A DNA stretch of 64,000 nucleotides, taken from Candidatus Zhuqueibacterota bacterium. Its GTDB lineage: Bacteria > Zhuqueibacterota > Zhuqueibacteria > Thermofontimicrobiales > Thermofontimicrobiaceae. The position numbers were made by a program, and so were the translations under genes. The notes under the pieces were generated by a model. It made no database searches. It worked only from the letters and a program-made list of their open reading frames with translations, and was not told the DNA's origin. Positions 3,019 through 54,769 of the stretch are shown one piece after another; the first letter of the stretch is position 1, and each line of letters begins with the position of its first letter. The stretch is from NCBI GenBank assembly GCA_049322915.1, contig JBMOPW010000034.1, positions 424,567-488,566 of the forward strand. Reading direction: 5' to 3'.

Positions 3019-4017
3019 CTATTTATAAATCCTGATTGGTTCATAATTGCTTTGTGTCAAGATAGACTGAGAAAATTTATGCACCTGCTCTTTGAACAAC
3101 TGCCGAAATGACTTCTCCTCATCTTTATCTTGAAGGGTCACAGGTTCTTTAATTCTTTTTTCATAGTGAGTAAAAAATGTTTTCCTTGCTTCCTGAGTTA
3201 AATACACGCCTTCATTTTCCACGGGTTCAAAATCTTCTGACGTTAATATGTTGTTATTAAATATATTCAGAGTAAATCGATCCACAAAGGGATGGCGAAA
3301 TTCTTCGACAATATCAAGGGCAAGCGAAGGTCGGCCATAACTTAAACCATGAAGAAATCCAATATAAGGATCCAGTCCATGCGCAGTAATCATTGAAAAA
3401 ATTTCATTAGTAATCATGGTATAACCAAAGCTCAATAATGCATTCACAGGGTCTTTCGGAGGTCTGCGCGTTCGTTTTTCAAACCGTAATTCTTTTCGAA
3501 ACATTTTTCCGAACGCCCGAAAATATGCCGCAGTGCTGACTCCTTCAGCGCCCATAATACTGTTGACGTTATCCAGCTTATCCAAAGACAATAACGTCGT
3601 ATCAATGGTTTGCACTTCCTTTGAAAAATCAATTTCCGGATAATTTTGCTGATATCGTGAAATCAGCGCCCGACCATTTTTAATTTTTCCTTCGACAATG
3701 TTACGCGCTACTTTTGTTTGAAAGGCGCTGTCAAGGAAGCGCTCGTACTGGGCAACTCTGAGCAATACATTTTTGGACTCGGCCGGCTGAAGCTTACCGC
3801 GAAATTTACCCATGGAACTAAGATAGCACACTTCAATTCCTTCATCCAGCAATGTCCCAACAGCCTGGCTGGTAATTTGAATATTGCCAAACAGGAGGAG
3901 GCGGTCAACTTTAATGAGCGGTATCTGTAATAGTTTTTCTTTGTCTTTTGTCACGACAAGTTGTCTGGACGTAATTCGAACAGTACTGCCATTTTCAGTG
4001 ATGTAAATTGAACTCAT
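3019..4017 (-). CDS. cas1: CRISPR-associated integrase Cas1
   Basis: 332 aa; GAEG, RRPPKDPVNALLSFGY, GLDPYIGFLH and LALDIVEEFRH motifs. Confidence 0.98.
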   Translation of the reverse strand: MSSIYITENGSTVRITSRQLVVTKDKEKLLQIPLIKVDRLLLFGNIQITSQAVGTLLDEGIEVCYLSSMGKFRGKLQPAESKNVLLRVAQYERFLDSAFQTKVARNIVEGKIKNGRALISRYQQNYPEIDFSKEVQTIDTTLLSLDKLDNVNSIMGAEGVSTAAYFRAFGKMFRKELRFEKRTRRPPKDPVNALLSFGYTMITNEIFSMITAHGLDPYIGFLHGLSYGRPSLALDIVEEFRHPFVDRFTLNIFNNNILTSEDFEPVENEGVYLTQEARKTFFTHYEKRIKEPVTLQDKDEEKSFRQLFKEQVHKFSQSILTQSNYEPIRIYK

Positions 4018-4270: not shown

Positions 4271-7219
4271 CTAAATTTCAATAATCCATTTTATCGAATT
4301 ATCCTGGTTGATTCTCTTCAGCGTTCCCATCTTAAATTCCATTTTGTCACACTTTCGCTGATCGAACACCAGCTTCAATTTCGTTTCAAGTGTCTGTTTT
4401 TCTGTATCCAATGCCCGAAACTTTTGTTTCAGTCCAATGTAATCTTCCATAAGTTGTTCTAGCTCTATCTCCGGAATTATTTGAATTATTTCATCTTGAG
4501 GCGATGAAGAAATAGAATGATCAGCAGGTTGTTCTTTCTGTGTTGCTGATCCTGGTTTTTGTTTCGGTATTTCATGTGCAACAGGAATATCTTTCTTTGG
4601 GCTATCAGCGTTTGAGCTACTGCGATTTTTGGGTTTAAAATTTGAATCGGCATGAAGCAAAGGTGTGGGATAACATTTCGAATTTTCAGGGAATGGACAA
4701 TAGCAGCCAATGCTAGGAGTAATATGATTTTGCCATTCCCTTATTTTGGGACAACTTACAGGCGAACCTTTCAGGCGCAGATACCATTTTTGTGTAATTC
4801 TGTGATCATAGTTGAGCGTTTTGCTGATAATTTTGTGCAGCATATATCTTCCTTCTTCACCCAGATGTCCGAGTGTGTGAAGCAACGTTAAACGGTCAAT
4901 GTGCGCCAGATGACGTTCTTTTTCAACTTTATTCACTAAATATTTCAGAACATTACACTTTTCAATCATTCTTTCAGCTTTAGATGTATCTATATTTTTT
5001 GATGGGCCTTCAATTTCTCCTGCATTTAATCTTTCTATGGCTGCATGAAATTGTGATTGCGTTATTTGCTTAATAGAATTCAATACTTCGAACTGATTTT
5101 TCCAGGGCTGTCCACTCGGTTCCAGTAACAAACAACGCCTTTCTGTTAATTTATGAACACCAAGCGGCAATTTGACCATCGATCCCAGAGCTTTAGTTGA
5201 AACTCGCGCTTCTTTTGGAAATATTTCACGATTAATTCCAGAAGGCGGTTCTCCTGTTTCTTCTAATATTTTTTTCGCAAAGGCAATTCCATCTCTTGCA
5301 GGAACCGGATCTGAAAAGAAAAACCAAACGTGCCTTCCTTTAAACCCACTGTTTTCGATATAAACTGGAATATCTAATTTTTGACAAATCGAATATATAT
5401 TTACAGCATCTTGATGAGTTATTTCCTGCCATTTGTCCATGACGATTTCTTCATCAGTTGTTTCATTTCGTGCCTGGCGGGAAATATCAATGTCGATGAT
5501 GATATGTCTTACCGTATTATCTGTGCGCAGTATATACATACCCAGAGTTTCTTTACCCTGAAAATGTGATTTAACAACATCTTTAGAAAGCGGCTTATAG
5601 ACGGGATTGTACCCCAATCTCCCGGTATTATCCGTCCATTGTCGTGAGTATACGCCTTCTCGCGCGGAAAAAAGTTGTATGAATAATTGTATATCATTTT
5701 CCTCAAAATTGGCAATTGGTAGACTTTGAGGCGGGGCAGTAACTTTTTGTGGCTGAGTAACGTTTTTAATGCGCTTTAACTTAGGGTCTAATTGAAACGC
5801 TTTTTCGAAAGCTTTTTGTGCTGCCCCGTTTAATGAGAACTTTTTCAATGCAGTCGCCAATGCAAAATGGGCATGAGCCGAATCCGGTGAATTTTGAATG
5901 GCTTTTTGCAGAAAACGAATCGCTCGCTCGAATTGTCCCTGATTCAAGTAATGCTGGCCCAACCGATATGCCGCGTCAGGATGATCTGCCTGAAGCCGGT
6001 ACACACGATGGTATGAATCAATTGCCTCCTGCTGCTTGTCCGATAATTCACAGATAACTCCCCACTGATATTGAAGTTCAGCATCTTCTGTGTTTTGTAT
6101 GGGAGCATTTTCGACCAAATTTTGGGCTTTCGGAGTATCGCCGAAATGCAATGCAAGAGCTGTCGTTAAAAGGCGAGCAGGCAATGATTCCTGCTGCGAT
6201 TTCAATTTATTCAGGAATTCTTCAAAAATCTGTTTTTTATTGGTGGTATCTAATTGAAAATAATTAGACCAGCCGCGAATAATACTTTCAAGCTTATCTT
6301 TCAGTTGTACATCAGAAATAGTTTCAGCCTTTTCCAGCACTTTTTCTATTTTCTTTGTTACTTTTTCCACAGAAGAAGCACTGGGCCTTTTACCTGACAA
6401 GTCAAAATAATATCCCAAAAATACAAACCCATCTTTAGCATGTAATATCTTTGTTTTATCCTTGTGAAACTCGAGTTGTAAATCCTGTTTCAGACATTGG
6501 TTTGCACGCTGGAATGCCGTATTTGCCTCCTGTTCTGACTGGCATAGTACGACCAAATCATCTGCATATCGAATATAGTTCCATTTTGCTTTTATCATTT
6601 TCTCGTCAAGAACATGTAAATACAAGTTCGCCAGCATCGGTGAAATCGCCCCTCCCTGAGGGATTCCTTTTCCTTCTTGAGATTGTCCGGATTTTAATAT
6701 CAGTTCAATTATCCTTATAATTTTATTATCAGCGACATGACTTTCCAACATTTTTAAAACCAGATTGTGATCCACATTATCGAAAAAACCTTCGATATCA
6801 GCATCAACAATCCACTGCTTACCTTTTTTAATATTCCTCATTACACGCTCTGCCGCTTTTTGTGCAGATTTACCGGTTCGATAAGCATAGCTGCAATCTA
6901 AAAACACTTTTTCAAGAATTGGTTGAATTGGGAGTTGTAAGGCTACTTGTACAACCCTGTCTCGTACTGTCGGGATTTTCAGTTCCCTTAATTTACCTGA
7001 TTCCTTTTTGATCTGGAAGCTAAGAAGTGGAAGTGGCTGATACGTTCCTTGTTTCACTGTCTCTAAAAGTAAAGATAAATTTTCATCCAAATTTTGTTCA
7101 AAATCTGAAATCGTAACTCTGTCCAGCCCGGGTGCGCCAAGATTGGAACGAACTTTAGACCATGCTTGTTGGAAATTCTCCTTATTACAGATATTAAACC
7201 AGAGCGGCTGCTGAGACAT
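4271..7219 (-). CDS. CRISPR-associated reverse transcriptase-TPR-primase/polymerase (AEP/CAPP-like) fusion
   Basis: N-terminal group II intron-type RT (AWSKVRSNLGAPGLD, IPTVRDRVVQ, DADIEGFFD, GIPQGGAISP, YADD, X/thumb motif IRGWSNYF). TPRs at about aa 345-485. AEP motifs IIIDID, ENSGFKGRHVW and KLPLGVH. Cys/His-containing PriL/PriCT-like C-terminal region (KCNVL...SCPKIRE...GCYC). Confidence 0.9.
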   Translation of the reverse strand: MSQQPLWFNICNKENFQQAWSKVRSNLGAPGLDRVTISDFEQNLDENLSLLLETVKQGTYQPLPLLSFQIKKESGKLRELKIPTVRDRVVQVALQLPIQPILEKVFLDCSYAYRTGKSAQKAAERVMRNIKKGKQWIVDADIEGFFDNVDHNLVLKMLESHVADNKIIRIIELILKSGQSQEGKGIPQGGAISPMLANLYLHVLDEKMIKAKWNYIRYADDLVVLCQSEQEANTAFQRANQCLKQDLQLEFHKDKTKILHAKDGFVFLGYYFDLSGKRPSASSVEKVTKKIEKVLEKAETISDVQLKDKLESIIRGWSNYFQLDTTNKKQIFEEFLNKLKSQQESLPARLLTTALALHFGDTPKAQNLVENAPIQNTEDAELQYQWGVICELSDKQQEAIDSYHRVYRLQADHPDAAYRLGQHYLNQGQFERAIRFLQKAIQNSPDSAHAHFALATALKKFSLNGAAQKAFEKAFQLDPKLKRIKNVTQPQKVTAPPQSLPIANFEENDIQLFIQLFSAREGVYSRQWTDNTGRLGYNPVYKPLSKDVVKSHFQGKETLGMYILRTDNTVRHIIIDIDISRQARNETTDEEIVMDKWQEITHQDAVNIYSICQKLDIPVYIENSGFKGRHVWFFFSDPVPARDGIAFAKKILEETGEPPSGINREIFPKEARVSTKALGSMVKLPLGVHKLTERRCLLLEPSGQPWKNQFEVLNSIKQITQSQFHAAIERLNAGEIEGPSKNIDTSKAERMIEKCNVLKYLVNKVEKERHLAHIDRLTLLHTLGHLGEEGRYMLHKIISKTLNYDHRITQKWYLRLKGSPVSCPKIREWQNHITPSIGCYCPFPENSKCYPTPLLHADSNFKPKNRSSSNADSPKKDIPVAHEIPKQKPGSATQKEQPADHSISSSPQDEIIQIIPEIELEQLMEDYIGLKQKFRALDTEKQTLETKLKLVFDQRKCDKMEFKMGTLKRINQDNSIKWIIEI

Positions 7220-7280: not shown

Positions 7281-8294
7281 TCAACTCCCAAATGATAATT
7301 TATATTTTCCTAAACCAAATGTAGTATTTTTTCCAACATGTACATACTGCCCTAAAATTAAAAATGGTAAAAATGGTTGTAAGTACCCCTGAAATGTAAT
7401 TCGCCCGGTAATCCCCCCTAGCTTCATTCTCGTTTTCTGACGGCTGGAATACCTCTCCCAATCATTCCATTCTGTATTTGCATCCACAACTTCGACGTTT
7501 TCTTTTGCTTGCAGAATAATTTCTGGATAATTTAAAGCCCATTCACTATCACAATGTATTTTTCCAAGCATAGAAACACGTCGTATTAAATTCCGCATCA
7601 ATAGTTCAAAAGTAACATTTTCAATTAATTGTTTTTTTAATATGATCCTCAACGGAGATATTATATCTATATGAATTTGCCCGGTATTTGCGTAGGTTAG
7701 ACATTCATGCAATTTATTTAAATCCCAGATTATGAAATTTCCGTTTAATACCTGATCCTTTTTATCAAATATTTGCCGAGATTGATAGGATGATATATCC
7801 TCGATTGCATTTACTGATATTAAGTCAAATTTGCCTCGGCCTTTTCCCAGCCCGATAAGGCCAAGCTGATCGAAAGTATATATAAAATAAGGAAGATATC
7901 TTATACTCTTTCCAATTAAAATCAATCCAAATGACAACTTTTCCCCGGCTTTATATTCTTTTTGCTCAGACAATGGCGGCTCGATAACAAATGGATGAGG
8001 ATAGTTATCTGCAAAATGTTGAATATCGTAACTTCTTAAATTTGGGGTTTCAAAAATGTAGGCATACGGGCAAGTCTGGTTCAAAATACATATTTGGCAC
8101 TGTTTTTCTAATGCATCACAGACAACGCGTCGAAATGTGTTCCCAAAACCACCTCGTAGAGTAGACCCTTTATATTCTGGCAGATAAAGGGTTTCTTTCG
8201 CTTTAATGTTAAATTCGAACATCGCCCAGGTAAATTTTTGATTCCAGAAATCTTCCTGCCAACTCAATTCAGTATTTGACTTCACTGCTTGCAT
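7281..8294 (-). CDS. cas6: CRISPR pre-crRNA processing endoribonuclease Cas6
   Basis: KGSTLRGGFG, Cys cluster CxxCx4CPY, PHPFVIEPP and C-terminal glycine loop HVGKNTTFGLG. Confidence 0.93.
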   Translation of the reverse strand: MQAVKSNTELSWQEDFWNQKFTWAMFEFNIKAKETLYLPEYKGSTLRGGFGNTFRRVVCDALEKQCQICILNQTCPYAYIFETPNLRSYDIQHFADNYPHPFVIEPPLSEQKEYKAGEKLSFGLILIGKSIRYLPYFIYTFDQLGLIGLGKGRGKFDLISVNAIEDISSYQSRQIFDKKDQVLNGNFIIWDLNKLHECLTYANTGQIHIDIISPLRIILKKQLIENVTFELLMRNLIRRVSMLGKIHCDSEWALNYPEIILQAKENVEVVDANTEWNDWERYSSRQKTRMKLGGITGRITFQGYLQPFLPFLILGQYVHVGKNTTFGLGKYKLSFGS

Positions 8295-8356: not shown

Positions 8357-9412
8357 TTATAACTTTTCCTTTAACAGAGTTCTAAAATTTTCATTATCAA
8401 AGATTTTTATATTTAATTCCTGACATCGTTCGTACAGATGCTTTTCTTTCCTCATAGGAGCAGATGTCACAAAATAGGCTTTACCAAATGTACCTCCAGC
8501 TAATGAACGCAATGCTTCCAATTCAAAAATATCTTTCTTGTCTTTAGTAATACCAGATTTACATGAAAAGAGATATAGCTTTCCATTTTTATTGCCGATG
8601 ACGTCAATTTCGTTCAGAATAATATTTGGGTCTGCCTGTCCGTGGTATGTCAAATTCGCTCCGACAAATAAATCGTCCCATTTTTTATTAATAATACTCC
8701 AGTAAACATATTCTTCCAACCAACGGCCATCTAAATAATAAATATCTTTCAAATGAATCTCTGATCCTCCAAATTTAACAACCGCCCCTTTCATTTTATG
8801 ATGAGTTATTTCAAAGTCAATGTGACGACATCGAATCGGTGGAAAAAGCACGGTACCATCATATATAAATCTTCTATATTGGATTAAACAACCTTCAATA
8901 GATTGAAAATTTTTATGTATAAATTTAATTAAGGGTTTTCTCGCTAAGAGATCGTCGTTGGATACCGAACTGGAAATTTTATAGCCGTGTGCGTCAAGGA
9001 TCGTATCGATAGGAATTTTCACCTTATGATCAACAATTGTATAAGGATTGAAATTGATTGTCTTATTATTATGTGAATCAAGATATACAATAGATTTATT
9101 TTTTGAATTAAAGACAGAATATGCCGCTAGCGCCATTACTTTCGTTCCGCCGGTCGCGTTGAGTATAACATCCTTATGCATAGAAATGATTTCACTACAA
9201 ACCGTTCGAATATTTTCAAAATCATAAGCATCAATCAAATGCTCGTTTATGGTAAAATTTTTACCAGAATCGCTCAAAACTCTTTTTAAATTTTTATGGG
9301 ATCGTTCCTCCTCAACTGTGTAAAGCAATTCAACATTCTTAATACTTAGAGTGAAAAGTGGAATAAGGTTTGCCATGACCTGCCTGGAAACCAGACACAC
9401 CATTGTTTTCAT
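8357..9412 (-). CDS. CARF + PD-(D/E)XK nuclease effector (DUF1887, Card1/Can2-like)
   Basis: N-terminal CARF (LVSRQ..AN, NATGGTK) and C-terminal restriction-like motif GRWLEEYV...NEIDVI...FSCKSG. Confidence 0.85.
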   Translation of the reverse strand: MKTMVCLVSRQVMANLIPLFTLSIKNVELLYTVEEERSHKNLKRVLSDSGKNFTINEHLIDAYDFENIRTVCSEIISMHKDVILNATGGTKVMALAAYSVFNSKNKSIVYLDSHNNKTINFNPYTIVDHKVKIPIDTILDAHGYKISSSVSNDDLLARKPLIKFIHKNFQSIEGCLIQYRRFIYDGTVLFPPIRCRHIDFEITHHKMKGAVVKFGGSEIHLKDIYYLDGRWLEEYVYWSIINKKWDDLFVGANLTYHGQADPNIILNEIDVIGNKNGKLYLFSCKSGITKDKKDIFELEALRSLAGGTFGKAYFVTSAPMRKEKHLYERCQELNIKIFDNENFRTLLKEKL

Positions 9413-9454: not shown

Positions 9455-10618
9455 TCAAATCTTGTTCTCTGCTTTTGCGGCTTGGTAAATTCTAATTTGT
9501 TCCATTAATTCGTCAAACAGGTTTGGTATACTTCGGACATTCACCTCAATAGATTGTAAATTCATTGAGCGCCGCCCCAGATATTGCACCTGGCGTTTGC
9601 TTCTGACACACGCTAATACAATTCCTGCTGTTGCCGTCGCAGGGCCGCTCGTAATATCCGCTGTGATATCTTCCTCATCCAAATTTGATAAACTTTTGGC
9701 TCTAATGTAAATGTCATCCACAGTCTTACAAATCCGGTTGACATCATCAGGATCGTTTATTTCTACCTTAGTAATTTTGATTTTTTTATACAAGAAATTA
9801 ATTATGGTTTCAAATGGCTGTAGTGAAGTTTCCTCGGCCTCAGAAGTTAACAATACCCAAATTTGTTCCAAATTATTTCGATGGTGTTCCATAGCAAGTA
9901 GCGGTGGATAGAGCGGTGTTTCCATCAATAATCTGAATGCTTCAATCGCCTTTAAAGTATAGATTTCCGGTTTAAGAATTGAATTCATATCTAATCGTTT
10001 TTCAGGGGTTGTATATTTCAAAATTTCCTGCAATATTGCCCTTACTTTAGATAAGATTACTTTTTCTGAATTTATTAATCGAATGAATTTGTTTATCTTT
10101 TCCTTTTTTGATAATACACTCAACGATAGAACGAGTCCTTTAGTTTTTCTTGGAACACCTTGGTTCGGAGAAATTAACTGCTCAATTTTTTGTTTTTCAG
10201 TAAAATTGACAACACCCAGAACAATGAACATCAGACTAAATGAAAAAATAGCGCCAGCTAATAAAAAATTTGGAGATTGCTCCAACGCCGGGAATTCACG
10301 TACATAATCCATTAACCATGTAAACGCCACGATAGCGACAATCACCAAAGAAAAACCAGCGATTTTTTGCATTGTAAGGATGCTCAACATCGTGGCGCCA
10401 AGGGATTTTATTTCAGCCTTATATTTCAAGCGGGAATAAAGAACTAAAAATGATCCTAATATAAAACAAATTCCACTGGCTACAAGAAATATCAAAATGC
10501 TCTTATTAGCGAGCACCCATTTCAAATAGCTTACCACGCAGACAATAAAGAATGGAAAAAAAATCAATGCTTTATTGATGAATTTATTCATAAAAAGACC
10601 TTCTATAAGTCTTCCCAA
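9455..10618 (-). CDS. Membrane-anchored CARF-domain effector (about 4 TM helices + CARF); start may be the ATG at 10591
   Basis: Four hydrophobic segments in aa ~15-140; C-terminal CARF-like Rossmann region (GLVLSLS, HHRNNLEQIWVL, DPDDV, ADITSGPATATAG). Confidence 0.75.
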   Translation of the reverse strand: MGRLIEGLFMNKFINKALIFFPFFIVCVVSYLKWVLANKSILIFLVASGICFILGSFLVLYSRLKYKAEIKSLGATMLSILTMQKIAGFSLVIVAIVAFTWLMDYVREFPALEQSPNFLLAGAIFSFSLMFIVLGVVNFTEKQKIEQLISPNQGVPRKTKGLVLSLSVLSKKEKINKFIRLINSEKVILSKVRAILQEILKYTTPEKRLDMNSILKPEIYTLKAIEAFRLLMETPLYPPLLAMEHHRNNLEQIWVLLTSEAEETSLQPFETIINFLYKKIKITKVEINDPDDVNRICKTVDDIYIRAKSLSNLDEEDITADITSGPATATAGIVLACVRSKRQVQYLGRRSMNLQSIEVNVRSIPNLFDELMEQIRIYQAAKAENKI

Positions 10619-10622
10619 TCGT

Positions 10623-11399
10623 CTATTGCTTAGCTTTTATATTATTAATAAACGAGGCAATACGATTTGCGTTGCCATATCCATAATCTTTTAAATAACC
10701 TTTAGACTCCTTAAAAAATTCCTCCCAGAAATATTTATTGAGTCTATAATCTTGTTTATTTTTTTCAGTTGCGCCACAAACAAAAATTGAAGATTTCTTT
10801 AAATTAGGCATCTGCGCTGTGTCTTTTAGATTTTTAATTTTTTCCTCTACCTCTGATGAAGTATTCAACTTTTTAAAATTCACTTCCGGCGACTCCTGAA
10901 TCATATCAGAAAAAATGAATATTGCATTATTGGACTCTTTCAAATACTTTTCTGCCTGAATCAATGCGCCAATAATATCTGTTTCAAGATTAAATTTTTT
11001 TCGCTGATCTCGAAAATAATAAATTTCATGGCTGAACATTGTATCAAGCGCTCTCATAAATCGGGCGTTTAGCGTATCAGCCTCATTCAGCATTTCAAAA
11101 GGACCGATATTCCGGGAAAGTTGTTCTTTAAAATCACTGAAATTACAATCAGCAATGACTTCATCTTTCATTTCCGATGCTTTATCAATCGGAATGATAA
11201 TGATGTGATCATCAAATGTCAATTGTTTCAATAAACCCTGACGAAACATTTCAACATACTTATTGAATTCCTCATCCGATAAGGAAGCGGAATAATCGAA
11301 CAGTACAATGCAGTTCATACCCTTTTTTATTAGCAAGTCGCAGCGGAATAGCCCAATAAACAGACTTGCAATTAGTATTAAAATTCTGAAAAAGCTCAT
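10623..11399 (-). CDS. Exported or membrane-anchored vWA-like (MIDAS) domain protein
   Basis: Hydrophobic N-terminus followed by Cys; VLFDYSAS (DxSxS), TDIIGAL and IFIFSDM match the vWA MIDAS pattern. Confidence 0.7.
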   Translation of the reverse strand: MSFFRILILIASLFIGLFRCDLLIKKGMNCIVLFDYSASLSDEEFNKYVEMFRQGLLKQLTFDDHIIIIPIDKASEMKDEVIADCNFSDFKEQLSRNIGPFEMLNEADTLNARFMRALDTMFSHEIYYFRDQRKKFNLETDIIGALIQAEKYLKESNNAIFIFSDMIQESPEVNFKKLNTSSEVEEKIKNLKDTAQMPNLKKSSIFVCGATEKNKQDYRLNKYFWEEFFKESKGYLKDYGYGNANRIASFINNIKAKQ

Positions 11400-12454
11400 T
11401 TCTTTTTGTCCTCAATAAATTTTTGATAATTAAAATTCACCAATTTTTTATATTGTTCTCTGTAGGTATTCAATTTTGATAGAGTACTTTGTGATTGGCT
11501 CATTAGTTTAACTTTGAACAAATGAAAGTTATTGTATACAAGTCTGTCTTTTTCATTCTCATTTTTATTCTGATCATCATTGTCATATTCACGCAACAAC
11601 CAGCGTTTCACATAATTCATCCAGGCCCACTGATTATTTACATCCTTTTCAATTTGCCGATCAATAAAATCCAGATTATTTTGAATCTCCCTTTCGGTTT
11701 GATCAATCTGACTTTTAAACTTCTTCCATTTTATCATGCGTCGGTATTTATGAATAATTTCTGTTACCTCTGCACCTTGCAGCCCTAATGCAATGGCAAC
11801 GATAATAGCTAATCCCACAGTCACAAGCATGATCCATAAATTAACAGTCGTACCGCCGGCAATGATGAATTCCCGAATAATACCTAAAGCAATCAGTACT
11901 GTCGCCAAAATAATGGTAGCAGTGAAATACATATTTCTTCTTGACCGCAATTTCACTAACTGTTTATTTTCCTCCTGGGTTCGCTTTTCCTGAATTTTTA
12001 ACATGATATATTGAAAATGCGCCATAACAAAATTCTCCACAAGGAATAAAGCCATAAGAGAAATAATAACAGCCGTTGCAATCCGAATAATTTCAATAAA
12101 AACATTGCGACCGGGCAACATAGCTTTGAGAGCAAAATAATTGAATGCGCCTTCACAGACAATAAAAGCAATCATTAGCAGAAAATTGGTTCTCCGAATC
12201 CGTTTCATTTTTTCGAATTCTTCCGAGTCAAATGGAGGCTGTTCCGGGGCATGAAATAAACCAAAGTCATCAATGACATTCTTCAAATCGAATCCATGCT
12301 CCAATAGTCTGCCGGTTGATTCGATGTCTTTCTTTTCATCTTTTGATAAGAAATAGGAGAAATTAGTCGCACATTCATGTGCGAACATCTTTAGCGGATT
12401 CGGCAATTTCTTTAATTTGTGATACCGAATTTTAAACCAGAATGTATTCTTCAT
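11396..12454 (-). CDS. Hypothetical membrane protein, about 4 TM helices + C-terminal coiled coil
   Basis: 352-aa ORF with RBS; four hydrophobic segments in aa ~90-226 and a heptad-rich tail; 4-bp overlap with the vWA gene. Confidence 0.8.
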   Translation of the reverse strand: MKNTFWFKIRYHKLKKLPNPLKMFAHECATNFSYFLSKDEKKDIESTGRLLEHGFDLKNVIDDFGLFHAPEQPPFDSEEFEKMKRIRRTNFLLMIAFIVCEGAFNYFALKAMLPGRNVFIEIIRIATAVIISLMALFLVENFVMAHFQYIMLKIQEKRTQEENKQLVKLRSRRNMYFTATIILATVLIALGIIREFIIAGGTTVNLWIMLVTVGLAIIVAIALGLQGAEVTEIIHKYRRMIKWKKFKSQIDQTEREIQNNLDFIDRQIEKDVNNQWAWMNYVKRWLLREYDNDDQNKNENEKDRLVYNNFHLFKVKLMSQSQSTLSKLNTYREQYKKLVNFNYQKFIEDKKK

Positions 12455-12479: not shown

Positions 12480-12863
12480 TTAAAACAAGTCTGTTGTGTA
12501 GGGTCTGAATTGAATAAACTTAAATTCTTTCTTCATACTTCCATCTTCATATTCTTCAGTTTTCCGGTCTGTTGTAGAGGCGATACAAAGCATGCCTTCT
12601 TCGGCCATTTTTTTAACAAATTGGAAAACAAATGTCATCTCACCCATGACATGAACAGCATTTTTATTATGCCCCTTCTGTTTAACTAATTCAGAACATT
12701 TTTCAGTATATTTATCAACCAATTCAAGAATATCATCATATGAAGCTTCAGGCAAAATTTGAGGAAATTTTTCATCAATAATTTCACCAAACTGCTTTTC
12801 AGCCTCATCTTTTTGTTTTTTATCCCATTTGGCGGACGGGTGGTTTGATAGGTTGATGAGCAT
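12480..12863 (-). CDS. Small CRISPR ancillary protein, Csx15/Csx20-like (candidate ring nuclease)
   Basis: MLINLSNHPS..W...Q, FPQILP, VMGE and STTDR..F.F..FR.Y motifs; ATG at 12863 with a GGAGAA RBS. Confidence 0.65.
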   Translation of the reverse strand: MLINLSNHPSAKWDKKQKDEAEKQFGEIIDEKFPQILPEASYDDILELVDKYTEKCSELVKQKGHNKNAVHVMGEMTFVFQFVKKMAEEGMLCIASTTDRKTEEYEDGSMKKEFKFIQFRPYTTDLF

Positions 12864-12887
12864 GTATTTCTTCTCCAAAATTCTAAT

Positions 12888-13131
12888 GAAATCCGATATT
12901 GTCACGGCAAACCAATTATAAAAGCCACAAGGGTTTTAGTCAGTAATATTTTAGGCGTACTTTCTACTGGCGAAACAATCAAACAGATACTCGAAGATTA
13001 CCCTAACATAATCCGTAAAGACGTATTAGCTGCGCTTAAATGTGGTAGCGAACTCTCAAATTTTGAAACCTTTTCCTATAAGTCCTACACATTATGATTT
13101 TTTTCTTGATGAAAATTTTCCGAAATCGGTA
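12888..13131 (+). pseudogene. Remnant of a DUF433 antitoxin / DUF5615 PIN toxin pair
   Basis: Frame 12900-13097 reads CHGKPIIKATRVLVSNILGVLSTGETIKQILEDYPNIIRKDVLAAL with no start codon. The overlapping ATG at 13094 is followed, across a frameshift in a T7 run, by FFLDENFPKS and is then cut off by the TIR-FGE gene. Confidence 0.8.
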
Positions 13132-14139
13132 TCATTCAATTACTTTCATAACACGAAATCCAGTATAAATATTTGCATGAGAACGATGTAAATACAAACG
13201 AAAAGAACATTGACAGGCAGAAGCAGGATCACGCCATGAGCCACCTTTGACAACATGATAGTCTGTATTTTTATCTTCGCTATCCGTACACCATTCCCAA
13301 ATATTACCACTCATTGCAAGTATTCCAAAAGGATTGGGAAGTCCAACTGAATCATTTGTTAATCCGCATTGAAGTCCATTGTGATTAACATGTTCGCTGG
13401 AAAATTTTCCATTGACTGTTGCGTATTTAAATTTATTTACTCCTGCTGTTGCAGCATACTCCCACTCTTTTTCAGTTGGTAGTCTAAATTTTGGTCCTTT
13501 TCTCTCCGATACCCACTCACAAAATTTTACTGCCTGGTCCCATGAAATATTAGTGACCGGGTGATCTTCTTCTCTAGAAACTTCGTTAAAATCGAAACGC
13601 GCAAATCGTCTATACTCTCTGACTGTTATTGGAAATATTGCAAGTTGAAATTTTTCGATCTGCTCATAACGCTTAGTTTTAGAAAAACGAAAATTGCCAG
13701 AAGGTATATCAGCAAAGTCTATGGGTACGGGTTCGCCTTGTCGATCAGATTTTGGTACATTTAATTCGGCTTCAAAATTTTTTAATGTTTTTTTTAACGC
13801 ATTAATCAAATTGTCATCATTTAATTTAATCCATTGAAGATGCGCAATAACGGTTGGAAGCTCAATCTGATCAACCAAAACAGGAATTATTTTCATCTTG
13901 TTTTCTAAAGCGGAATTTAATTCTTCTTTAACGAATGATGATCTTTTTGCATCTTCTGACCATAAGAGAATCAGAACATCGCACTTTCTAATGTAATTGA
14001 AAATGATTACTCTAAAGGCATCCCCTGGATGCAAAATCTTAAGATCGAAAAAAATTGTATGATCTGTTCCTAACTCGCTTTCAATTTTTTTTGTAATTTC
14101 TATATTTTCTCGGGCGTAACTTATAAATATATTTACCAT
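13132..14139 (-). CDS. TIR domain + formylglycine-generating-enzyme (FGE-sulfatase/SUMF1) domain protein
   Basis: IFISYARE...GDAF...SSFVKEEL (TIR_2 with Glu); HPVTNISW, RLPTEKEWEYAA, PNPFG...GNIWEW, KGGSW and GFRV (FGE fold). Confidence 0.9.
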   Translation of the reverse strand: MVNIFISYARENIEITKKIESELGTDHTIFFDLKILHPGDAFRVIIFNYIRKCDVLILLWSEDAKRSSFVKEELNSALENKMKIIPVLVDQIELPTVIAHLQWIKLNDDNLINALKKTLKNFEAELNVPKSDRQGEPVPIDFADIPSGNFRFSKTKRYEQIEKFQLAIFPITVREYRRFARFDFNEVSREEDHPVTNISWDQAVKFCEWVSERKGPKFRLPTEKEWEYAATAGVNKFKYATVNGKFSSEHVNHNGLQCGLTNDSVGLPNPFGILAMSGNIWEWCTDSEDKNTDYHVVKGGSWRDPASACQCSFRLYLHRSHANIYTGFRVMKVIE

Positions 14140-14325: not shown

Positions 14326-16599
14326 TTAATGGTTTATCACGTCCTCTGGAGCCGGTAAGACTGGTCGGTTTTTATATTCATTCTCTTTATTTGTTTCTTG
14401 TTCATGTTCGATTTCAAGATAACGAGTCCTTTCGTTCCAGAATTTTTTGTGCGTATTATCCCAATCCAACATAACTTTTAATTGTTTCAAACGATATGTA
14501 TCCCACAAATCGTTAGCGGAAGGCTTTTCTGTGCTTCCAAGATTTTTAATAATATGATCTGAAAATTCTTTCTTCATTTCTGAAATCTTATCATCATGCG
14601 CTGCCGGTATAGACTCAACCCATTCAGCTAATAATGATCGATATCGCTGTTGACGGTTACTTAGATATAAATGAGGAGTAATTTTAACACTTCCCATTCC
14701 CAATGGCTTCCCCATACCAATCTTATGGCAGCATTTTTCTGGTAGTTGTAAAGCAAATAATATTGCGCCAAGTTCTTCATTTAATAGATTTTCAAATCGA
14801 ATTTTGGTATTAAATTTTGCATTGGTTGGAATAATATTAATAATTGTGTATTGAGTTTGTACACCAATCATTTTGCTTAGTTTTTCAATGGCATTTTTAA
14901 ATCTTTCATCCGTTATTTCTTTTATCTTCTTAACCAGAATCCGATTATCAGTTTTTTCAATCATATTGAATTGAATTGCTACTCCCTCTTTCTGCATAAA
15001 TTCTAAGAAAAGCTGTTTGTCAACGATCAGATCCAATTTATGATCCTGATATTGAGAATGCACATTTAATATTTGAATATACTCAAATACTATCTTTTTG
15101 AATTGCTCATCAGGACAGTTAATGAATCCTCTTATTTTTATTTTTTTGTCTTTTTCTTCTAATAGAATTCCCTTAGGAATATTTAAATTTTTAAAATTTA
15201 AAAACATCATAAAAGAAATTTTGTCAAATATCAGTTCATCTGCTCGCCCATTTCTGTTCCGATGCCAATAAAGTTTATGTCCGCGAAGTATAGTATCTAA
15301 AGAATTGTAATGATTTAATTCCTGGATAAAATCACTTTTTTGAACTAAATAATGTTGAAAAGTTGTGGGCTTGGGAGTTGCAAGTATTTCTGGAATAACA
15401 GTATTATTTGAACCAGGTTCGTTTTTGCTAATTAAATATCCATCCTCAAAGAATACTCTTCCGGCGATGGTTATATCTTTTCTTACTGTTCCAAAGATTG
15501 CCTCTGTCATATCGATTTTAGGATTATCCAGATCATAAGGCAACAATTCACCAAACGACTGCTCATAGGCGATACGAAACATAGCGGTATATCCAAATGA
15601 AATCCTCCCATTTTCATGTTCTACATAAAAACAAGGTATTATATCATTTTCATGGGATTTTAATTCATTTAGCAGATCAGTCCCAGCCCTATTTTCATCG
15701 GAACGATACAGCTTAATATCCATTTCATCAAGTTTAATTGGTTTTGTATTTATATCTGGAGGATTAATCACCCAATCATGTTTTTTATTTGGCATATTAC
15801 CAGAAACGACAATATACTCCTCACCAGATTTAAAAAAGTAATTTTTAAAATGAGAAAACCCCTCTTTTTCTATCGTATCTTCTTTTGAGATTTGATAAAA
15901 CTGCTTACTCTCAAATTTACGATATCGTTTACCATCTAATCTTTTTGCAGGTATGATCTGATAATTAACGCCTATTTTCGTTAAATATCCGGCATTCATT
16001 TTATATGTCGTTGATTTTGAACTCTTATCAAAGGGTGACATTTTATTTTGATATTCTTTACGGAAGTTACTTTTATCTGCTAATGCTCTATAATGAAGTA
16101 CTCGGTCTGATTCAGTTGTTATCTTGCTCCAACTTAAAATTTCCACTAGTGTTCTAATCATGCCACGAAATGAACTTCCAGGAATTGCTGCTTTTCCTGT
16201 CGGAGAAAAGAAATTTGAAGATTGTCTTGCAACAAACTCTTTTGTATCTTCAATTTTTTTATCGCAGTCTCGAATATAAACAGGAGTTAATGTCTCAATA
16301 TCACACTCAATATAACCGTTATGTCGGTCATTATCATAAGTATTAAATTTTTCGTAACGTGTGCCTTCAATTACTTTTTCACTCAAGGGAATAAAATTAT
16401 AAGGTGCTCTTGCCTGTCGATTGTATTTTGTGTTTTTATCAAATCTTATTTTTTTTGTTTGCCGTACAGCTTTTCTACCAAAGAACTCATTTCCTTTTAT
16501 TGAATCATCTAGTTTTACTTGAGACTTAGCTAAATTTATTCCCTGTTCTTTAGCTATTTTCTGTAATTTATCTTTCCAATCTTGCATTGTATTCTCCAA
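14326..16599 (-). CDS. cas7: Type III-D Cas7 with large insertion (TIGR03986-like RAMP)
   Basis: APYNFIPL, TLTPVYI, IPGSSFRGMIR, GRVFFED, PKPTT..HYL, RGHKLYWH and KIGMGKPLGMGSV. Confidence 0.9.
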   Translation of the reverse strand: MENTMQDWKDKLQKIAKEQGINLAKSQVKLDDSIKGNEFFGRKAVRQTKKIRFDKNTKYNRQARAPYNFIPLSEKVIEGTRYEKFNTYDNDRHNGYIECDIETLTPVYIRDCDKKIEDTKEFVARQSSNFFSPTGKAAIPGSSFRGMIRTLVEILSWSKITTESDRVLHYRALADKSNFRKEYQNKMSPFDKSSKSTTYKMNAGYLTKIGVNYQIIPAKRLDGKRYRKFESKQFYQISKEDTIEKEGFSHFKNYFFKSGEEYIVVSGNMPNKKHDWVINPPDINTKPIKLDEMDIKLYRSDENRAGTDLLNELKSHENDIIPCFYVEHENGRISFGYTAMFRIAYEQSFGELLPYDLDNPKIDMTEAIFGTVRKDITIAGRVFFEDGYLISKNEPGSNNTVIPEILATPKPTTFQHYLVQKSDFIQELNHYNSLDTILRGHKLYWHRNRNGRADELIFDKISFMMFLNFKNLNIPKGILLEEKDKKIKIRGFINCPDEQFKKIVFEYIQILNVHSQYQDHKLDLIVDKQLFLEFMQKEGVAIQFNMIEKTDNRILVKKIKEITDERFKNAIEKLSKMIGVQTQYTIINIIPTNAKFNTKIRFENLLNEELGAILFALQLPEKCCHKIGMGKPLGMGSVKITPHLYLSNRQQRYRSLLAEWVESIPAAHDDKISEMKKEFSDHIIKNLGSTEKPSANDLWDTYRLKQLKVMLDWDNTHKKFWNERTRYLEIEHEQETNKENEYKNRPVLPAPEDVINH

Positions 16600-16602
16600 T
16601 CT

Positions 16603-17181
16603 TTAATCTAAAGGTTTTTGATTGTTAACAAATCCTACAAAACGACAGTCAACGTAAGATGCCTGATGCGCTTCGTTATAGCCGATATAATTATGCGTTT
16701 TGATACATACTCTGTTTTTTTCATTATCAACTTTTAAAGCAGAATAATTAAAAGGTAAAATGAGATTTGTTCCTCGTTCTTCATTGATTTCAGTAAAATC
16801 ATCTTTAGTTAATTTACGGGCATCAGTGCCGCATAATACTTGATTTGCGATAATAATTTCTGCCTCTTGTTGAATGTTCACATCATTGTCGATTCGGAGT
16901 CTTCCTTTCAACCCGCCGTTTGTTCGCCATAAATATAGCTCTTTATCTTTGTTAAATATTCGAACCTTTTGAAGAAACTGAATATTTAATGATTCATTAT
17001 TATGAGAGCTAAATTGGTTATCATCCCATCGTCCAATTAGTACTGCATAATCAAGCCAGGCAACGTAAAAAGCGCTTTCATTTATCAAAGAGCTCACTGT
17101 ATCTTCCAGGGTATTTTTTATTTCAACTGGTGAAACTGATCTTGATTTTATTTCTTTATATTCCAATCCATTAGCTTTCAT
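16603..17181 (-). CDS. csx19: Csx19-like type III-D subunit
   Basis: 192 aa; RIFN..KELYLWR and C-terminal YVDCRFVGF; canonical position between Cas7-Cas7 and Cas7-insertion. Confidence 0.8.
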   Translation of the reverse strand: MKANGLEYKEIKSRSVSPVEIKNTLEDTVSSLINESAFYVAWLDYAVLIGRWDDNQFSSHNNESLNIQFLQKVRIFNKDKELYLWRTNGGLKGRLRIDNDVNIQQEAEIIIANQVLCGTDARKLTKDDFTEINEERGTNLILPFNYSALKVDNEKNRVCIKTHNYIGYNEAHQASYVDCRFVGFVNNQKPLD

Positions 17182-18574
17182 TTCCGACCTCCTTTTTCAC
17201 TAATGAAGTGACATATTTTTGGAGTATGTCTTGTTCTGCTTTAGTTAAATTGTTCAGGTCTGTATTTTCTATTACAGGATCATCGTTTATTTTTATAATA
17301 GCTGATTTTCCATTAAAAACGCCACGACCTACATTTTTTTCACCACCTACAGCTAAATCACCAGACCACAAATCCTTTAATACTAGCAGTAATAGTCCCG
17401 CTTCGTAATCCTTGTAATCTTGAATAGTCATTTCCAGCTTTAGAACTTTTTCAGTGAAATCGATAAATAAAGGCATACTTTCAAACAATGCGGATTCTAT
17501 TGTACCGCCTGTAAAACGATCGATTTTTATTCGGGTTTGTATCTCAGCCACAAATTCAGGAAGCTCAACTTCATTGATTAGTAGTTTGCTTTTAATTGCC
17601 CTTTCAATTTTTTTTTCAGTCCTAATGGTATCCGATTTTTTTTCTTCAGGAATGAACCCAAATAATTCTTTTGCAATAATTTCAGGTTTACCTAGAGTAT
17701 TTAGAATACGCTCAGCTCGTCCCCTAATTGCGCCCTTCAACGATGAACCAGGAATAATATACTTACCCTTTGATTTTATGTGAACACTGTCCGGCTCTTT
17801 AGGATTTGATGAATATGATCTTATTATTATTGAGTTTTGAAGTTTCAGGACAGCTTCAATTGAAAACACGTCTTTTCTTTTAAATGGAAATGGATCGCCA
17901 AGATCAGTAATTTTAATTATATTAACTGCATCAAATTTCTTTGTTAGATAATTAAACACATTTCGTTTTTTGTTCGCATCATCCTTGAAATCAAATTCAT
18001 ATAGTTTTGAGTCTTCATCATTTAATTTCACAATTCCCAAACCATTATTCGTTTTCCCACCAAGGATAATCTGTGATTCGGACAATACCTGATAAATTGT
18101 TCGAACCATTCGTTTTATGAATTTTTTATTTTCATTTGTATACTCAAATTCCATATTTAGATTGAATGGAGAACCAGGTTCAACAATTTCATAATCATAT
18201 TTTCCATTGTGCTCCACAAGCCCTGTACGATTATCAATCCGAATGCCATCACGAATCACAATATCAGGCTTTTTATCTGAGTATAAATCGGAACAGTGAA
18301 AAGAACATTGATGTCCAGTTTTCTTTTTAGAAAAACCCCAGAAATTTTTAACAAAATTATCATTTATATCAGGATGTCTTTCAAGATCAATAGAATGCCT
18401 CAATACTCCACCAAATGAAGTTGCCGGGATAAAAGCGTAACCATTATCATCCACCAATACATCCATGTCACTGTGTTCTCCCGAGCCACAACCAATATGA
18501 AGAGGCGAAAGACATTGGACTTTTCCTTTCAGAAATATCTTACCCGTTATTCTCTCTTTATTATTTGTCTCCAT
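17171..18574 (-). CDS. cas7: Cas7-Cas7 double RAMP (Csm3-like)
   Basis: Two RAMP units: SPLHIG/IPATSFGG/RDGIRID/GGKTNNGLG and IPGSSLKGAIR/RIKIDRFTGG/GGEKNVGRG. Confidence 0.9.
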   Translation of the reverse strand: METNNKERITGKIFLKGKVQCLSPLHIGCGSGEHSDMDVLVDDNGYAFIPATSFGGVLRHSIDLERHPDINDNFVKNFWGFSKKKTGHQCSFHCSDLYSDKKPDIVIRDGIRIDNRTGLVEHNGKYDYEIVEPGSPFNLNMEFEYTNENKKFIKRMVRTIYQVLSESQIILGGKTNNGLGIVKLNDEDSKLYEFDFKDDANKKRNVFNYLTKKFDAVNIIKITDLGDPFPFKRKDVFSIEAVLKLQNSIIIRSYSSNPKEPDSVHIKSKGKYIIPGSSLKGAIRGRAERILNTLGKPEIIAKELFGFIPEEKKSDTIRTEKKIERAIKSKLLINEVELPEFVAEIQTRIKIDRFTGGTIESALFESMPLFIDFTEKVLKLEMTIQDYKDYEAGLLLLVLKDLWSGDLAVGGEKNVGRGVFNGKSAIIKINDDPVIENTDLNNLTKAEQDILQKYVTSLVKKEVGNES

Positions 18575-20165
18575 GCTTTTCCTCCTTCTTTGTATTGTTG
18601 ATCTTTCTCATTGTTGAAAAGAGCGTTTCATAAAATCGGTAATATAACATAGCGTTTAATTGTTGATCCTGTAATGGACTGTAATCAATTTTACCACTTA
18701 TTTTATTTAGTTTTTCTAACCGTGAGAATTCCTTTTTGCTTTTCAGCTTATCATTAATCCAATTACAATTTATATTTGTTTTTTCAATAAATTCGAGCAA
18801 GTTAACTTCCCTGTTTTTACAGTTCACCAATTTTTTACGCGCAGTGTCTCTTAATTTTTCGAATAGACCAAGATACTCTTTATAAATATTGTTTTTATTG
18901 GGATCAACATCAGTATTGATTTTACTGAGATCAATACTTTTTAATATCGCTAAAAGCCGGCCAATAAGAGAATTTGTTGGATAGGTTTGTCTATAGAATC
19001 CATCCGCTTCTTTCAATTCTTCCTGCGCTAAATATTCAGCGTATTTTAGATAACTATCTTTTATTAATTGTGTCATTACATTAATTGTTAATTCCGGTAT
19101 TTTACCTTTTGGCTCTGAAAATGTCGCTCTATTCGTATAAGTCTGTTTAACCAATGTTTCACCATTTTGCCAGCCCAAAATACACTGCCCAAAACCTTCA
19201 CGAGTGCGTTCACCGATACCTGTTTTTTCAAATTGTTTAATTCGATCAAACTCATCCTTTGTAATTTTAAGCAAAAATGTTGAACCGGCAAGGAAGCAGC
19301 TTTCTGAAGGCTTCTTTAATTTCCAGACGCCAACAAAACTTTCTGTTTCACCTTTCTTTATAAATGACTTAATAATTTGCGCTGGTTCTATTTCTAAATA
19401 TTCTGATAGCGCTTTTTTATTGAAAACAGGAAAACCATTTTCATCATATAAAATCGTATTGGAAAGCAATGTTAAAGAAATTTCGTCTTCAAATTCAACA
19501 TCTCTGTCCATATCTTTAATTGAAGAAACTTCAAAATTTAGAGAAACCTTGCCATACTGCGCGTTCCTGGAGCGACCGATATATGCTATCGGATCAGGTT
19601 TAAACAGATCAGCTAAATCTTTCAGTATTTGTACATCGCCAAGAATTTCCCCTTGAAATAGCTGGCCTGAATCAATTGATTCATAATTAAAAATTTGTCC
19701 TTCTTCTGTAATTCCTGTTTCCCGATTTCTTGCATGATGAAAATTTAGAGATGTCACTGTATTTTTAACGAAGATTTGTTCTTCGCTTATTGAGCAGAAT
19801 TCACCTAAACTTTTAGTCGATTTATCAGGTCTGTCATAAAGCAAATCGAAAATCTCCTCTCCATATTTCTCTTTCTGTATCGAACAAGGCATTGTTAGAT
19901 GATTGTAAATAGTTCCATTATCCTCATGACAAATATAGGCATTTCTGTAAAAGACATCCTGAGATAAAAACATCTTTTGAAAGCCGGGATTTTTATGTGC
20001 ATTCTCATAAGATAAATTATTTTTCGCAATGTATCTTTTTGCAAGTATTCCCAGCACAACGTTCCCGGGAATGCAATGCTCAGTATTTACCATATTCATG
20101 TCACCATGTTTAGCCGATAACACAACAGGTGATTGTGTTCTTATTATGTATGTAATTGATTTCAT
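18561..20165 (-). CDS. Csx10/Cas5-like RAMP with a helical C-terminal extension (probable fused Cas11)
   Basis: IPGNVVLG, IGRSRNAQYG, AGS and GIGERTREGFG glycine loops; helical C-terminus of about 170 aa. Confidence 0.75.
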   Translation of the reverse strand: MKSITYIIRTQSPVVLSAKHGDMNMVNTEHCIPGNVVLGILAKRYIAKNNLSYENAHKNPGFQKMFLSQDVFYRNAYICHEDNGTIYNHLTMPCSIQKEKYGEEIFDLLYDRPDKSTKSLGEFCSISEEQIFVKNTVTSLNFHHARNRETGITEEGQIFNYESIDSGQLFQGEILGDVQILKDLADLFKPDPIAYIGRSRNAQYGKVSLNFEVSSIKDMDRDVEFEDEISLTLLSNTILYDENGFPVFNKKALSEYLEIEPAQIIKSFIKKGETESFVGVWKLKKPSESCFLAGSTFLLKITKDEFDRIKQFEKTGIGERTREGFGQCILGWQNGETLVKQTYTNRATFSEPKGKIPELTINVMTQLIKDSYLKYAEYLAQEELKEADGFYRQTYPTNSLIGRLLAILKSIDLSKINTDVDPNKNNIYKEYLGLFEKLRDTARKKLVNCKNREVNLLEFIEKTNINCNWINDKLKSKKEFSRLEKLNKISGKIDYSPLQDQQLNAMLYYRFYETLFSTMRKINNTKKEEKHGDK

Positions 20166-54747: not shown

Positions 54748-54769
54748 TTTGTGAGATAATTCAGAGGGT

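Follow-up and report, generated by a model that had tools for sequence, protein, structure and literature searches.

A separable two-gene cassette of a membrane protein and a predicted vWA lipoprotein recurs in type III CRISPR loci and adjoins a 4TM-CARF gene in a Zhuqueibacterota bacterium

We analysed a stretch of 64,000 nucleotides from a Candidatus Zhuqueibacterota bacterium (assembly GCA_049322915.1, contig JBMOPW010000034.1, positions 424,567 to 488,566; hereafter the window), the first 25 kb of which form one minus-strand type III-D CRISPR locus (Table 1). Inside this locus three tightly packed genes of the same orientation, here called A, B and C, lie between csx20 and a gene for a Card1-like nuclease, and both flanks agree with what a preliminary description of the sequence had reported. 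The same holds for its 4-bp overlap, as ATGA at 11396-11399 is shared by the stop codon of A and the start codon of B. A gap of a few base pairs near 10620 had also been reported. B ends at 10623, which leaves 4 nt if C starts at the possible TTG at 10618. However, homologues of C begin at an ATG nine codons further on (P0012, 378 aa), and therefore the gene more likely spans 9455-10591, which widens the gap to 31 nt; a GAAGG box lies upstream of this ATG. The preliminary description took the three genes for a multi-subunit membrane effector gated by cyclic oligoadenylate (cOA). In the loci compared here A and B proved to be a strictly paired unit of their own that has repeatedly entered type III loci, with or without a gene of the C type.

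The protein encoded by gene A has four hydrophobic segments (residues 91-109, 118-136, 181-199 and 206-224), and clusters of Lys and Arg lie ahead of transmembrane (TM) helix 1, between TM2 and TM3 and past TM4. According to the positive-inside rule both ends would be cytoplasmic and both outer loops short. The structural model, built from a 30-row alignment, is all-helical (predicted local distance difference test, pLDDT, 84.2; predicted template-modelling score, pTM, 0.63) and predicts a single unbroken helix from 206 to 286 running out of TM4, a cytoplasmic N-terminal helical hairpin and further helices past 286. The four TM segments of the preliminary description were thus recovered; where it had a long coiled coil, the model shows a long helix packed in a helical bundle, and no inter-subunit coiled coil was evident. 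Among the charged and polar residues of the membrane part E101 is invariant, and N105 and R194 are kept in at least 90% of 30 sequences. No family in Pfam, NCBIfam or PADLOC matched A, a profile search against solved chains returned chance rows only, and in the ESM Atlas its matches were clusters of 'hypothetical protein'. The best Foldseek row, a chemoreceptor cytoplasmic domain, had a non-significant E of 0.05, followed by TolQ rows at 0.33. Moreover, the best score of a wide VIA search (Z 10.0, syntaxin Habc and designed helical proteins) lies within the background of helical models, and no fold was assigned. We also considered DUF4407 (PF14362) and rejected it. This family gave no match at the position of A in the window's genome at E<=10 and none in 16 further A-like or fused proteins at E<=0.1, nor was it among the 25 families listed for 21 A members (28 further families lie beyond these). 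The sole true DUF4407 gene found in the phylum has another topology and no B-like neighbour.

Gene B is predicted to encode a bacterial lipoprotein, as its signal peptide and lipobox suggest. The hydrophobic segment at residues 6-24 ends in LFRC, with the lipobox cysteine at position 20 and Asp at +2. At least 90% of 28 relatives share Cys20 and a lipobox-like Cys pattern is present in 89 of 129 representatives of the B family; the LPAM_1 profile matched 2 of the 28. Residues D35, S37 and S39 of the D-x-S-x-S motif and D165, which lies within an invariant FSDMIQ, do not vary among the 28 sequences, while T140, followed by D141, is invariant in the 10 close relatives, with either T or S at this position in the wider set. 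Together they spell the DxSxS...T...D pattern of a metal ion-dependent adhesion site (MIDAS), a putative metal site. In its predicted structure (pLDDT 90.1) B carries a vWA fold. It aligned with 50 vWA entries at Z 13.4-14.7 in VIA-align, in most rows with a root mean square deviation (rmsd) of about 2.8-3.1 over 156-180 residues; the best matches were ArnB (Z 14.7, rmsd 2.8, 162 aligned residues), the integrin alpha-M I domain (Z 14.4) and BatB (Z 14.1). Accordingly, Foldseek returned 118 PDB matches at E<=1e-3, and all matches listed were vWA domains. The exported vWA/MIDAS protein of the preliminary description therefore stood up to fold comparison and to the conservation of its lipobox and motif residues. 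By sequence B is far less recognisable. The window's protein had no Pfam vWA match, and a sequence-profile search against solved chains gave chance rows only. Among the 28 members VWA_CoxE matched five (best 4.9e-5), VWA_2 five and VWA_3 two, the scores shown being sub-threshold. Thus, B has fold and metal-site motif in common with integrin I domains, ArnB and BatA/BatB of Bacteroides but differs from known vWA proteins as a lipoprotein always paired with A whose sequence stays under all Pfam vWA cut-offs. Neither a MoxR ATPase nor another known vWA partner adjoins it. Three B-family proteins of 401-409 aa (P0044, P0066, P0067) have an extra C-terminal region of about 130 residues.

The four TM segments of the gene C product all fall in residues 1-130 and are separated from a CARF domain by a helical insert of about 85 aa, in line with the 4TM protein with a C-terminal CARF-like domain expected from the preliminary description. 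PADLOC profiles matched it as CARF_2M (2.7e-32), TM+CARF (2.6e-27) and CARF8--CARF_TM (1.1e-22), and CARF-HEPN profiles more weakly; by these matches we class it as a TM-CARF of the CARF8 type. We take the CARF_2M profile to stand for the Cam1 family. Pfam gave no match and NCBIfam TIGR02710 reached 17.3 bits against a cut-off of 83.9. The CARF motif reads DITSGPAxATAG, which we take to be of the D-x-T-x-G type, with D312 and T314 invariant in 12 sequences. In the predicted periplasmic loop between TM3 and TM4 residues D95, Y96, R98, E99 and P101 are invariant in nine sequences, and P101 is still invariant once short TM-CARFs are added.

Close relatives of each of the three proteins are rare, with 9-11 clusters among 5.8 billion proteins. 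The wider B family is large. A search with its profile gave 159 representative clusters at E<=1e-30, and relaxing the threshold to 1e-10 and 1e-3 raised the count to 1267 and 2601, respectively. Loci with a B-like gene were gathered from metagenomes (23), genomes of the same phylum as the window (21) and a genome collection (two), which makes 46, or 47 with the window. In 38 of the 46 at least 300 nt upstream of B are available, and 36 of these 38 carry an A-family gene directly upstream of B on the same strand. The independent support for this count comes from an iterative search, since the scores of the 'Aall' profile for L055-L074 are circular by construction. Two of the upstream genes, in L060 and L061, were counted as A on their 4-TM topology only; the iterative search did not join them and their profile match is circular. 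The upstream gene of L091 was counted on a weak score and four TM segments. The two exceptions are L062, in which a B-like open reading frame (ORF) has no A-like ORF upstream, and L025, a 96-aa partial B-like match beside kinase, AAA and PP2C genes and without an A-like gene, which was rejected and treated as another vWA system. Furthermore, A and B occur fused. Six of the 148 best representatives are fusions of 616-680 aa (P0082, P0118, P0127, P0131, P0134, P0153) in which the A profile hits the N-terminal half (E 4e-48 to 3e-9), and a seventh is L070:90-1871. The fusions have a further, fifth hydrophobic segment and a lipobox-like Cys ahead of the B domain. This puts the B domain on the side opposite the C-terminus of A, in agreement with an exported B. 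A and B hence form one conserved, strictly paired unit. With a lipobox-like Cys between the halves, a fusion might be cleaved and lipidated after insertion.

Of the 47 A-B loci 12 lie in type III loci. The pair adjoins a III-D gene set like that of the window in the window itself, L003, L018 and L026, and in L004 the A-B-C-Card1 block of the window is closely reproduced. The pair is accompanied by Csx3-AAA and cas2 in L019 and by cas6 in L055; in L056 it stands between cmr6, its immediate upstream neighbour, and a Cas6-RT-Cas1 fusion (RT, reverse transcriptase) downstream. In L020 the pair lies among III-B genes with Csx1, Csx3 and Csx3-AAA, and its B gene overlaps at its end with a CARF5 gene. 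A TM-CARF adjoins A-B in five of the 12, in the order A-B-C in the window and L004 and in the order C-A-B in L057, L058 and L091; the recurrence of the trio near cas genes, for which the preliminary description had suggested a neighbourhood search, was thereby confirmed. The TM-CARFs of the C-A-B order are short, two complete ones having 239 and 243 aa (CARF8--CARF_TM 1.8e-48 and 2e-34), and the B proteins of the two orders are about 30% identical. In a tree of 39 B proteins, from which duplicates, fragments and fusions (L021, L022, L023, L024, L025, L063, L070) were left out and in which L091, fetched later, is not placed, CRISPR-linked rows stand in five places. They require five label changes, at least four of which are forced by supported branches, and none of 500 label shuffles gave a number as low as five. 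The window/L004 clade and the L055-L058 clade lie on opposite sides of the midpoint root. Therefore, A-B was recruited to type III loci in at least four separate clades. In type III loci the pair is always found among cOA-sensor or ring-nuclease genes (TM-CARF, Csx3, Csx3-AAA, CARF5, Csx20). Csx3 or Csx3-AAA adjoins it in four loci and is its second recurrent neighbour besides TM-CARF; Csx3-AAA lies directly beside it at L003:7695-8585, L019:2224-3285 and L020:7622-8746, and plain Csx3 occurs in L026 and L020.

The trio is not an obligate unit. A TM-CARF profile matched 12 of 167 genomes of the phylum. A-B adjoins the TM-CARF in four of them (G000, G084, G166, G074), six have a TM-CARF without adjoining A-B (G135, G137, G141, G039, G064, G056), and the other two are ambiguous. 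In G135 and G137 4TM-CARF homologues of 40-44% identity stand in type III loci without the pair. No B match was found in either genome at E<=1e-8 among the first-look candidates scored (15 of 25-27). In G137 the 4TM-CARF gene is followed by cas6. In G135 (L097, contig G135:C206, 2457-5050) csx20 (45% identity), 4TM-CARF (40%) and the Card1-like gene (58%) are contiguous, and tblastn detected no remnant of A or B at E<=1. Compared with this block, the window thus appears to carry an A-B cassette inserted between csx20 and TM-CARF, or else G135 appears to have lost the cassette. Conversely, A-B lies in type III loci without an adjoining TM-CARF in L003, L020, L026 and L056. The link between TM-CARF and A-B is hence facultative both ways.

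Outside CRISPR loci A-B is often found beside signalling genes, such as a REC gene in L005, histidine kinases and response regulators in L010 and Reg_prop sensor genes in L012 and L066. L005 holds the closest non-CRISPR relative of the window's pair, and its stand-alone REC gene (L005:4606-4974) starts one base past B. For Cam2 a REC domain is proposed to sense cOA (PMC11229360). Two places in G140 (L060 and L062) show the string NYN nuclease, A, B, 140-aa gene, HerA-like ATPase, 99-aa gene and relaxase-like gene, in L062 without the A-like ORF. The two copies have diverged and a CHAT protease is encoded nearby; the surroundings look like a mobile or defence island.

The published TM-CARF-type effectors that we found in the literature, Cam1, Cap1, Chp1, Csx23 and Cam2, are all single-gene as far as the accessible parts of the reports describe them, which agrees with the precedent invoked in the preliminary description. 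NhCam1, a Cam1 (cOA-activated membrane protein 1; Baca et al. 2024, PMC10808066), is reported as a 206-aa protein with one TM helix which acts alone as a tetramer and which, by itself in a foreign host, arrests growth and protects against phage. C has the layout of the Cam1 family, with an N-terminal TM region, a C-terminal and presumably cytoplasmic CARF domain, no enzymatic domain and a place in a type III locus. However, it does not have the size of NhCam1 with its single helix and short linker, since it comprises 378 aa, four TM helices and the insert of about 85 residues, and it is flanked by A-B. Helix number and insert also set it apart from Cap1 and Chp1. These two (bioRxiv 10.1101/2025.11.13.688252, 10.64898/2026.08.05.743128) and Csx23 (PMC11014256) are described as membrane-embedded type III effectors which are opened by cA4 and depolarise the membrane. 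They are single polypeptides whose soluble parts are CARF-like plus DUF4579, CARF plus HAD and the Csx23 domain, respectively, and the accessible parts of the reports describe no periplasmic partner.

Hoikkala et al. (2024, PMC11229360) found Cam2 (TM and REC) and Cam3 (six TM helices with an N-terminal soluble domain) by neighbourhood and predicted them to be type III membrane ancillaries, and proposed Cam3 as an accessory that always accompanies the effector Cami1. Cam3 is the nearest precedent for A as an accessory membrane protein. Unlike A-B, neither has a vWA lipoprotein partner in the text available, and the words 'Willebrand' and 'lipoprotein' are absent from the main text. Shmakov et al. 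(2018, bioRxiv 10.1101/270033) predicted 2TM-CARF proteins and noted a type III membrane family without soluble domains (their Fig. 3C). Judged by its description in the text, this family may or may not correspond to A; 'vWA' and 'lipoprotein' do not occur in that text. Moreover, Altae-Tran et al. (2023, PMC10910872) list 'transmembrane_vWA + DUF4407' in Table S3 as a candidate CRISPR-associated system, a TM-anchored vWA gene of about 267 codons with a membrane/coiled-coil protein, as in A-B. Compared by its table description, this pair may be A-B itself or a sister pair, A being without a DUF4407 match. Neither the trio nor the A-B pair was described in the literature that our search returned; its reach did not extend to the figures and accessions in Shmakov et al. 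or to supplementary material of the bioRxiv preprints, which could bear on priority.

C is best read, by analogy, as a self-sufficient Cam1-like effector gated by cOA. Upon recognition of target RNA the GGDD-bearing Cas10 would make cOA, which the cytoplasmic CARF domain of C would bind; the TM domain would then perturb and possibly depolarise the inner membrane, a step that we infer from Cam1, Cap1 and Chp1. A would sit in the inner membrane with both ends and its helical bundle in the cytoplasm, and B would expose its vWA/MIDAS domain outside the cytoplasmic membrane. The fifth hydrophobic segment and the lipobox kept in the A-B fusions fit this topology. Since the pair always lies among cOA-sensor or ring-nuclease genes when in type III loci, we regard it as a separable envelope cassette that is a facultative accessory of cOA signalling and not an obligate subunit of the TM-CARF, a reading to which we give an even chance. 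A-B might provide a second membrane or envelope output, or modulate the membrane effector. A more specific version, in which A-B is a new type III ancillary device carrying the cOA signal across the inner membrane, appears improbable to us. Here the helical bundle of A would be acted on by whichever cytoplasmic sensor the locus encodes (TM-CARF, Csx3-AAA or CARF5), A would switch the MIDAS domain of B in the periplasm much as integrins signal from inside out, and a change of the envelope would follow, for instance a block of adsorption or injection or an altered permeability.

Several observations weigh against a role of A-B as an accessory of cOA signalling. The tie between the pair and cOA is one of gene neighbourhood, no domain resembling a cOA-binding one is recognisable in A, and the cytoplasmic parts of A are also conserved in non-CRISPR members. 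Synthesis of cOA by this Cas10 is predicted from the GGDD motif. A profile of nine C relatives matched only a chance proteasome row among PDB chains at E<=1, in a set in which the presence of a Cam1 chain is unconfirmed; as no solved CARF or Cam1 chain was matched, the CARF assignment of C draws on PADLOC profiles and motifs. Moreover, cas genes are missing from the available DNA in 35 of the 47 A-B loci, many of them short contigs; all loci were screened by phmmer with the window's Cas proteins, and some of them also with Pfam and PADLOC profiles. A-B also lies beside housekeeping-like genes in 16 of the 19 genomes of one family of this phylum (the count covers the unpublished G158 and G162), which fits a general envelope role that tolerates defence loci. 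The preliminary description had counted it against a joint effector if A and B were found mostly outside CRISPR loci and never with a TM-CARF. The former holds for this sample; the latter does not, given the five loci in which a TM-CARF adjoins the pair.

These observations could also mean that A-B is a passenger, i.e. an envelope-homeostasis or stand-alone defence module without a tie to cOA, as type III loci and defence islands collect mobile cassettes. The size of the mostly non-CRISPR family, its vertical retention in the family just mentioned, the island of G140 and the sensor-gene neighbours in L005, L010, L012 and L066 would all be expected of such a module. The cassette is present in the window and absent from the corresponding block of G135, and neither the 13 further genomes of the family to which the window belongs nor G124, of the same genus, contain A-B (E<=1e-8; genomes 56-97% complete), which suggests that in the window's genome it arrived with a mobile locus. 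However, 12 of 47 occurrences in type III loci are far more than random placement in genomes of 3-10 Mb would give (an estimate, not a computed test), and recruitment took place in at least four clades. Furthermore, the insertions always lie among cOA-sensor or ring-nuclease genes in operon orientation, with reading frames that often overlap or nearly touch (the window; B and CARF5 in L020). We therefore think it unlikely, though worth keeping in view, that the pair is a mere passenger.

The complex proposed in the preliminary description, a cOA-gated pore or envelope-spanning effector with C as sensor, A as second membrane subunit and B as periplasmic metal-dependent adaptor, was partly supported. 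The genes are packed as if for coupled translation (4-bp overlap of A and B; 4-31 nt from B to C), and the trio was seen in five loci with two distant B clades and two gene orders. Relatives of C of at least 47% identity also appear to be co-located with A or B relatives, as judged from equal longest-contig sizes (5666, 30995 and 2861), and the conserved TM3-TM4 loop of C could provide an acidic ligand for the MIDAS of B. Nevertheless, 4TM-CARF homologues do without A-B in the type III loci of G135 and G137, half of the 12 phylum genomes with a TM-CARF match have no adjoining pair, and A-B does without the TM-CARF in four type III loci and lies mostly outside CRISPR loci. In addition, Cam1 is reported to work alone (PMC10808066). 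A predicted complex of A, B (residues 21-258) and C scored 0.00 in two runs without controls, which speaks neither for nor against binding. Overall, an obligate complex of this kind seems quite unlikely. A very improbable alternative reverses the direction of signalling, so that B would bind an extracytoplasmic ligand, such as an envelope component or a surface part of a phage, and A would relay this to cytoplasmic partners. In ordinary loci these partners would be response regulators or kinases; type III loci would supply cOA sensors or ring nucleases instead, and there, with the same slight likelihood, the pair would adjust how readily the CRISPR response starts or how long it lasts. The long paired cytoplasmic helices of A loosely resemble signalling proteins (the chemoreceptor row, not significant), signalling genes often adjoin non-CRISPR A-B, and in type III loci its neighbours include the ring-nuclease types Csx3 and Csx20. 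However, A has no recognisable output domain, its fold matches stay within the helical background, and the neighbourhoods of A-B are heterogeneous.

The characterised type III membrane effectors Cam1, Cap1, Chp1 and Csx23 are, in the accessible accounts, single proteins acting on the inner membrane. A-B is a widespread unnamed pair with a predicted exported vWA lipoprotein which was recruited at least four times to the cOA-signalling part of type III loci, often beside a TM-CARF. Its recurrence hints at an undescribed link from CRISPR signalling to the cell envelope. If the facultative accessory acts in immunity, CRISPR signalling would gain an extracytoplasmic arm, and the pair would offer a first handle on a large family that is named in no library (1267 representative clusters at E<=1e-10). 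If it carried the signal across the membrane, this would be the first CRISPR output outside the cytoplasmic membrane and the first function for a family of more than 1000 clusters. Even if A-B plays no part in immunity, the unit, its topology and its fusions are defined, and the 4TM-CARF variant stands alone in related loci.

The assignment of the host locus to type III-D, which confirms the preliminary description, is based on cas10, csx10 (sub-threshold), csx19 and Csx7-type repeat-associated mysterious protein (RAMP) genes; Csx19 and TIGR03986 scored over their cut-offs and GGDD is present in the Cas10 translation. Family scans gave no HD-domain match in Cas10.

Table 1. Features of the type III-D locus in the window, in operon order (- strand, scores against the family cut-offs in brackets)
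Feature	Coordinates	Strand	Remarks
NE0113/CARF5-type CARF gene	24208-25353	-	upstream of cas10
CARF4-PD-DExK gene	22583-23893	-	upstream of cas10
cas10	20815-22569	-	palm2 50.8 bits (cut-off 27); GGDD in translation
small RAMP	20162-20818	-	
csx10	18561-20165	-	74.3 bits (under cut-off 177)
double Csx7	17171-18574	-	129 bits (cut-off 108)
csx19	16603-17181	-	115.4 bits (cut-off 35)
TIGR03986 RAMP	14326-16599	-	377.9 bits (cut-off 161)
TIR + FGE-sulfatase (SUMF1-like) fusion	13132-14139	-	Pfam TIR_2 5.9e-19, FGE-sulfatase 3.8e-31
csx20 (Csx15/20 family)	12480-12905	-	PADLOC Csx20 8.4e-34; NCBIfam 44.3 bits (under cut-off 70); directly upstream of A
gene A	11396-12454	-	352 aa, inner-membrane protein (predicted)
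gene B	10623-11399	-	258 aa, predicted lipoprotein
gene C (4TM-CARF)	9455-10618 from TTG; likelier 9455-10591 from ATG	-	378 aa
Card1-like CARF + PD-(D/E)xK nuclease	8357-9412	-	Pfam CARF_Card1 48.2 bits, Card1_endonuc 45.5 bits (both over cut-off); directly downstream of C
cas6	7281-8294	-	
RT-TPR-PrimPol fusion	4271-7219	-	982 aa, between cas6 and cas1
cas1	3019-4017	-	
cas2	2741-3016	-	
CRISPR array	about 322-2168		37-nt repeat, period 74-77 nt; four TRF pieces

For one Cas10 the set of sensors is unusually rich, with four CARF proteins (two CARF-PD-DExK, one TM-CARF and one of the NE0113/CARF5 type) in addition to Csx20. The TIR-FGE-sulfatase fusion sits inside the operon between the last RAMP gene and csx20 and has no CARF or SAVED domain. 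The 982-aa fusion joins a group II intron-type RT, TPR, an AEP-TOTE / CRISPR-associated PrimPol of type A1 (389 bits) and a Mu Gam-like C-terminus. Further along the window, at 53788-56257 on the plus strand and unrelated to A-B-C, a gene for an FHA-GGDEF diguanylate cyclase is followed by one for a Ser/Thr kinase with a PEGA domain.

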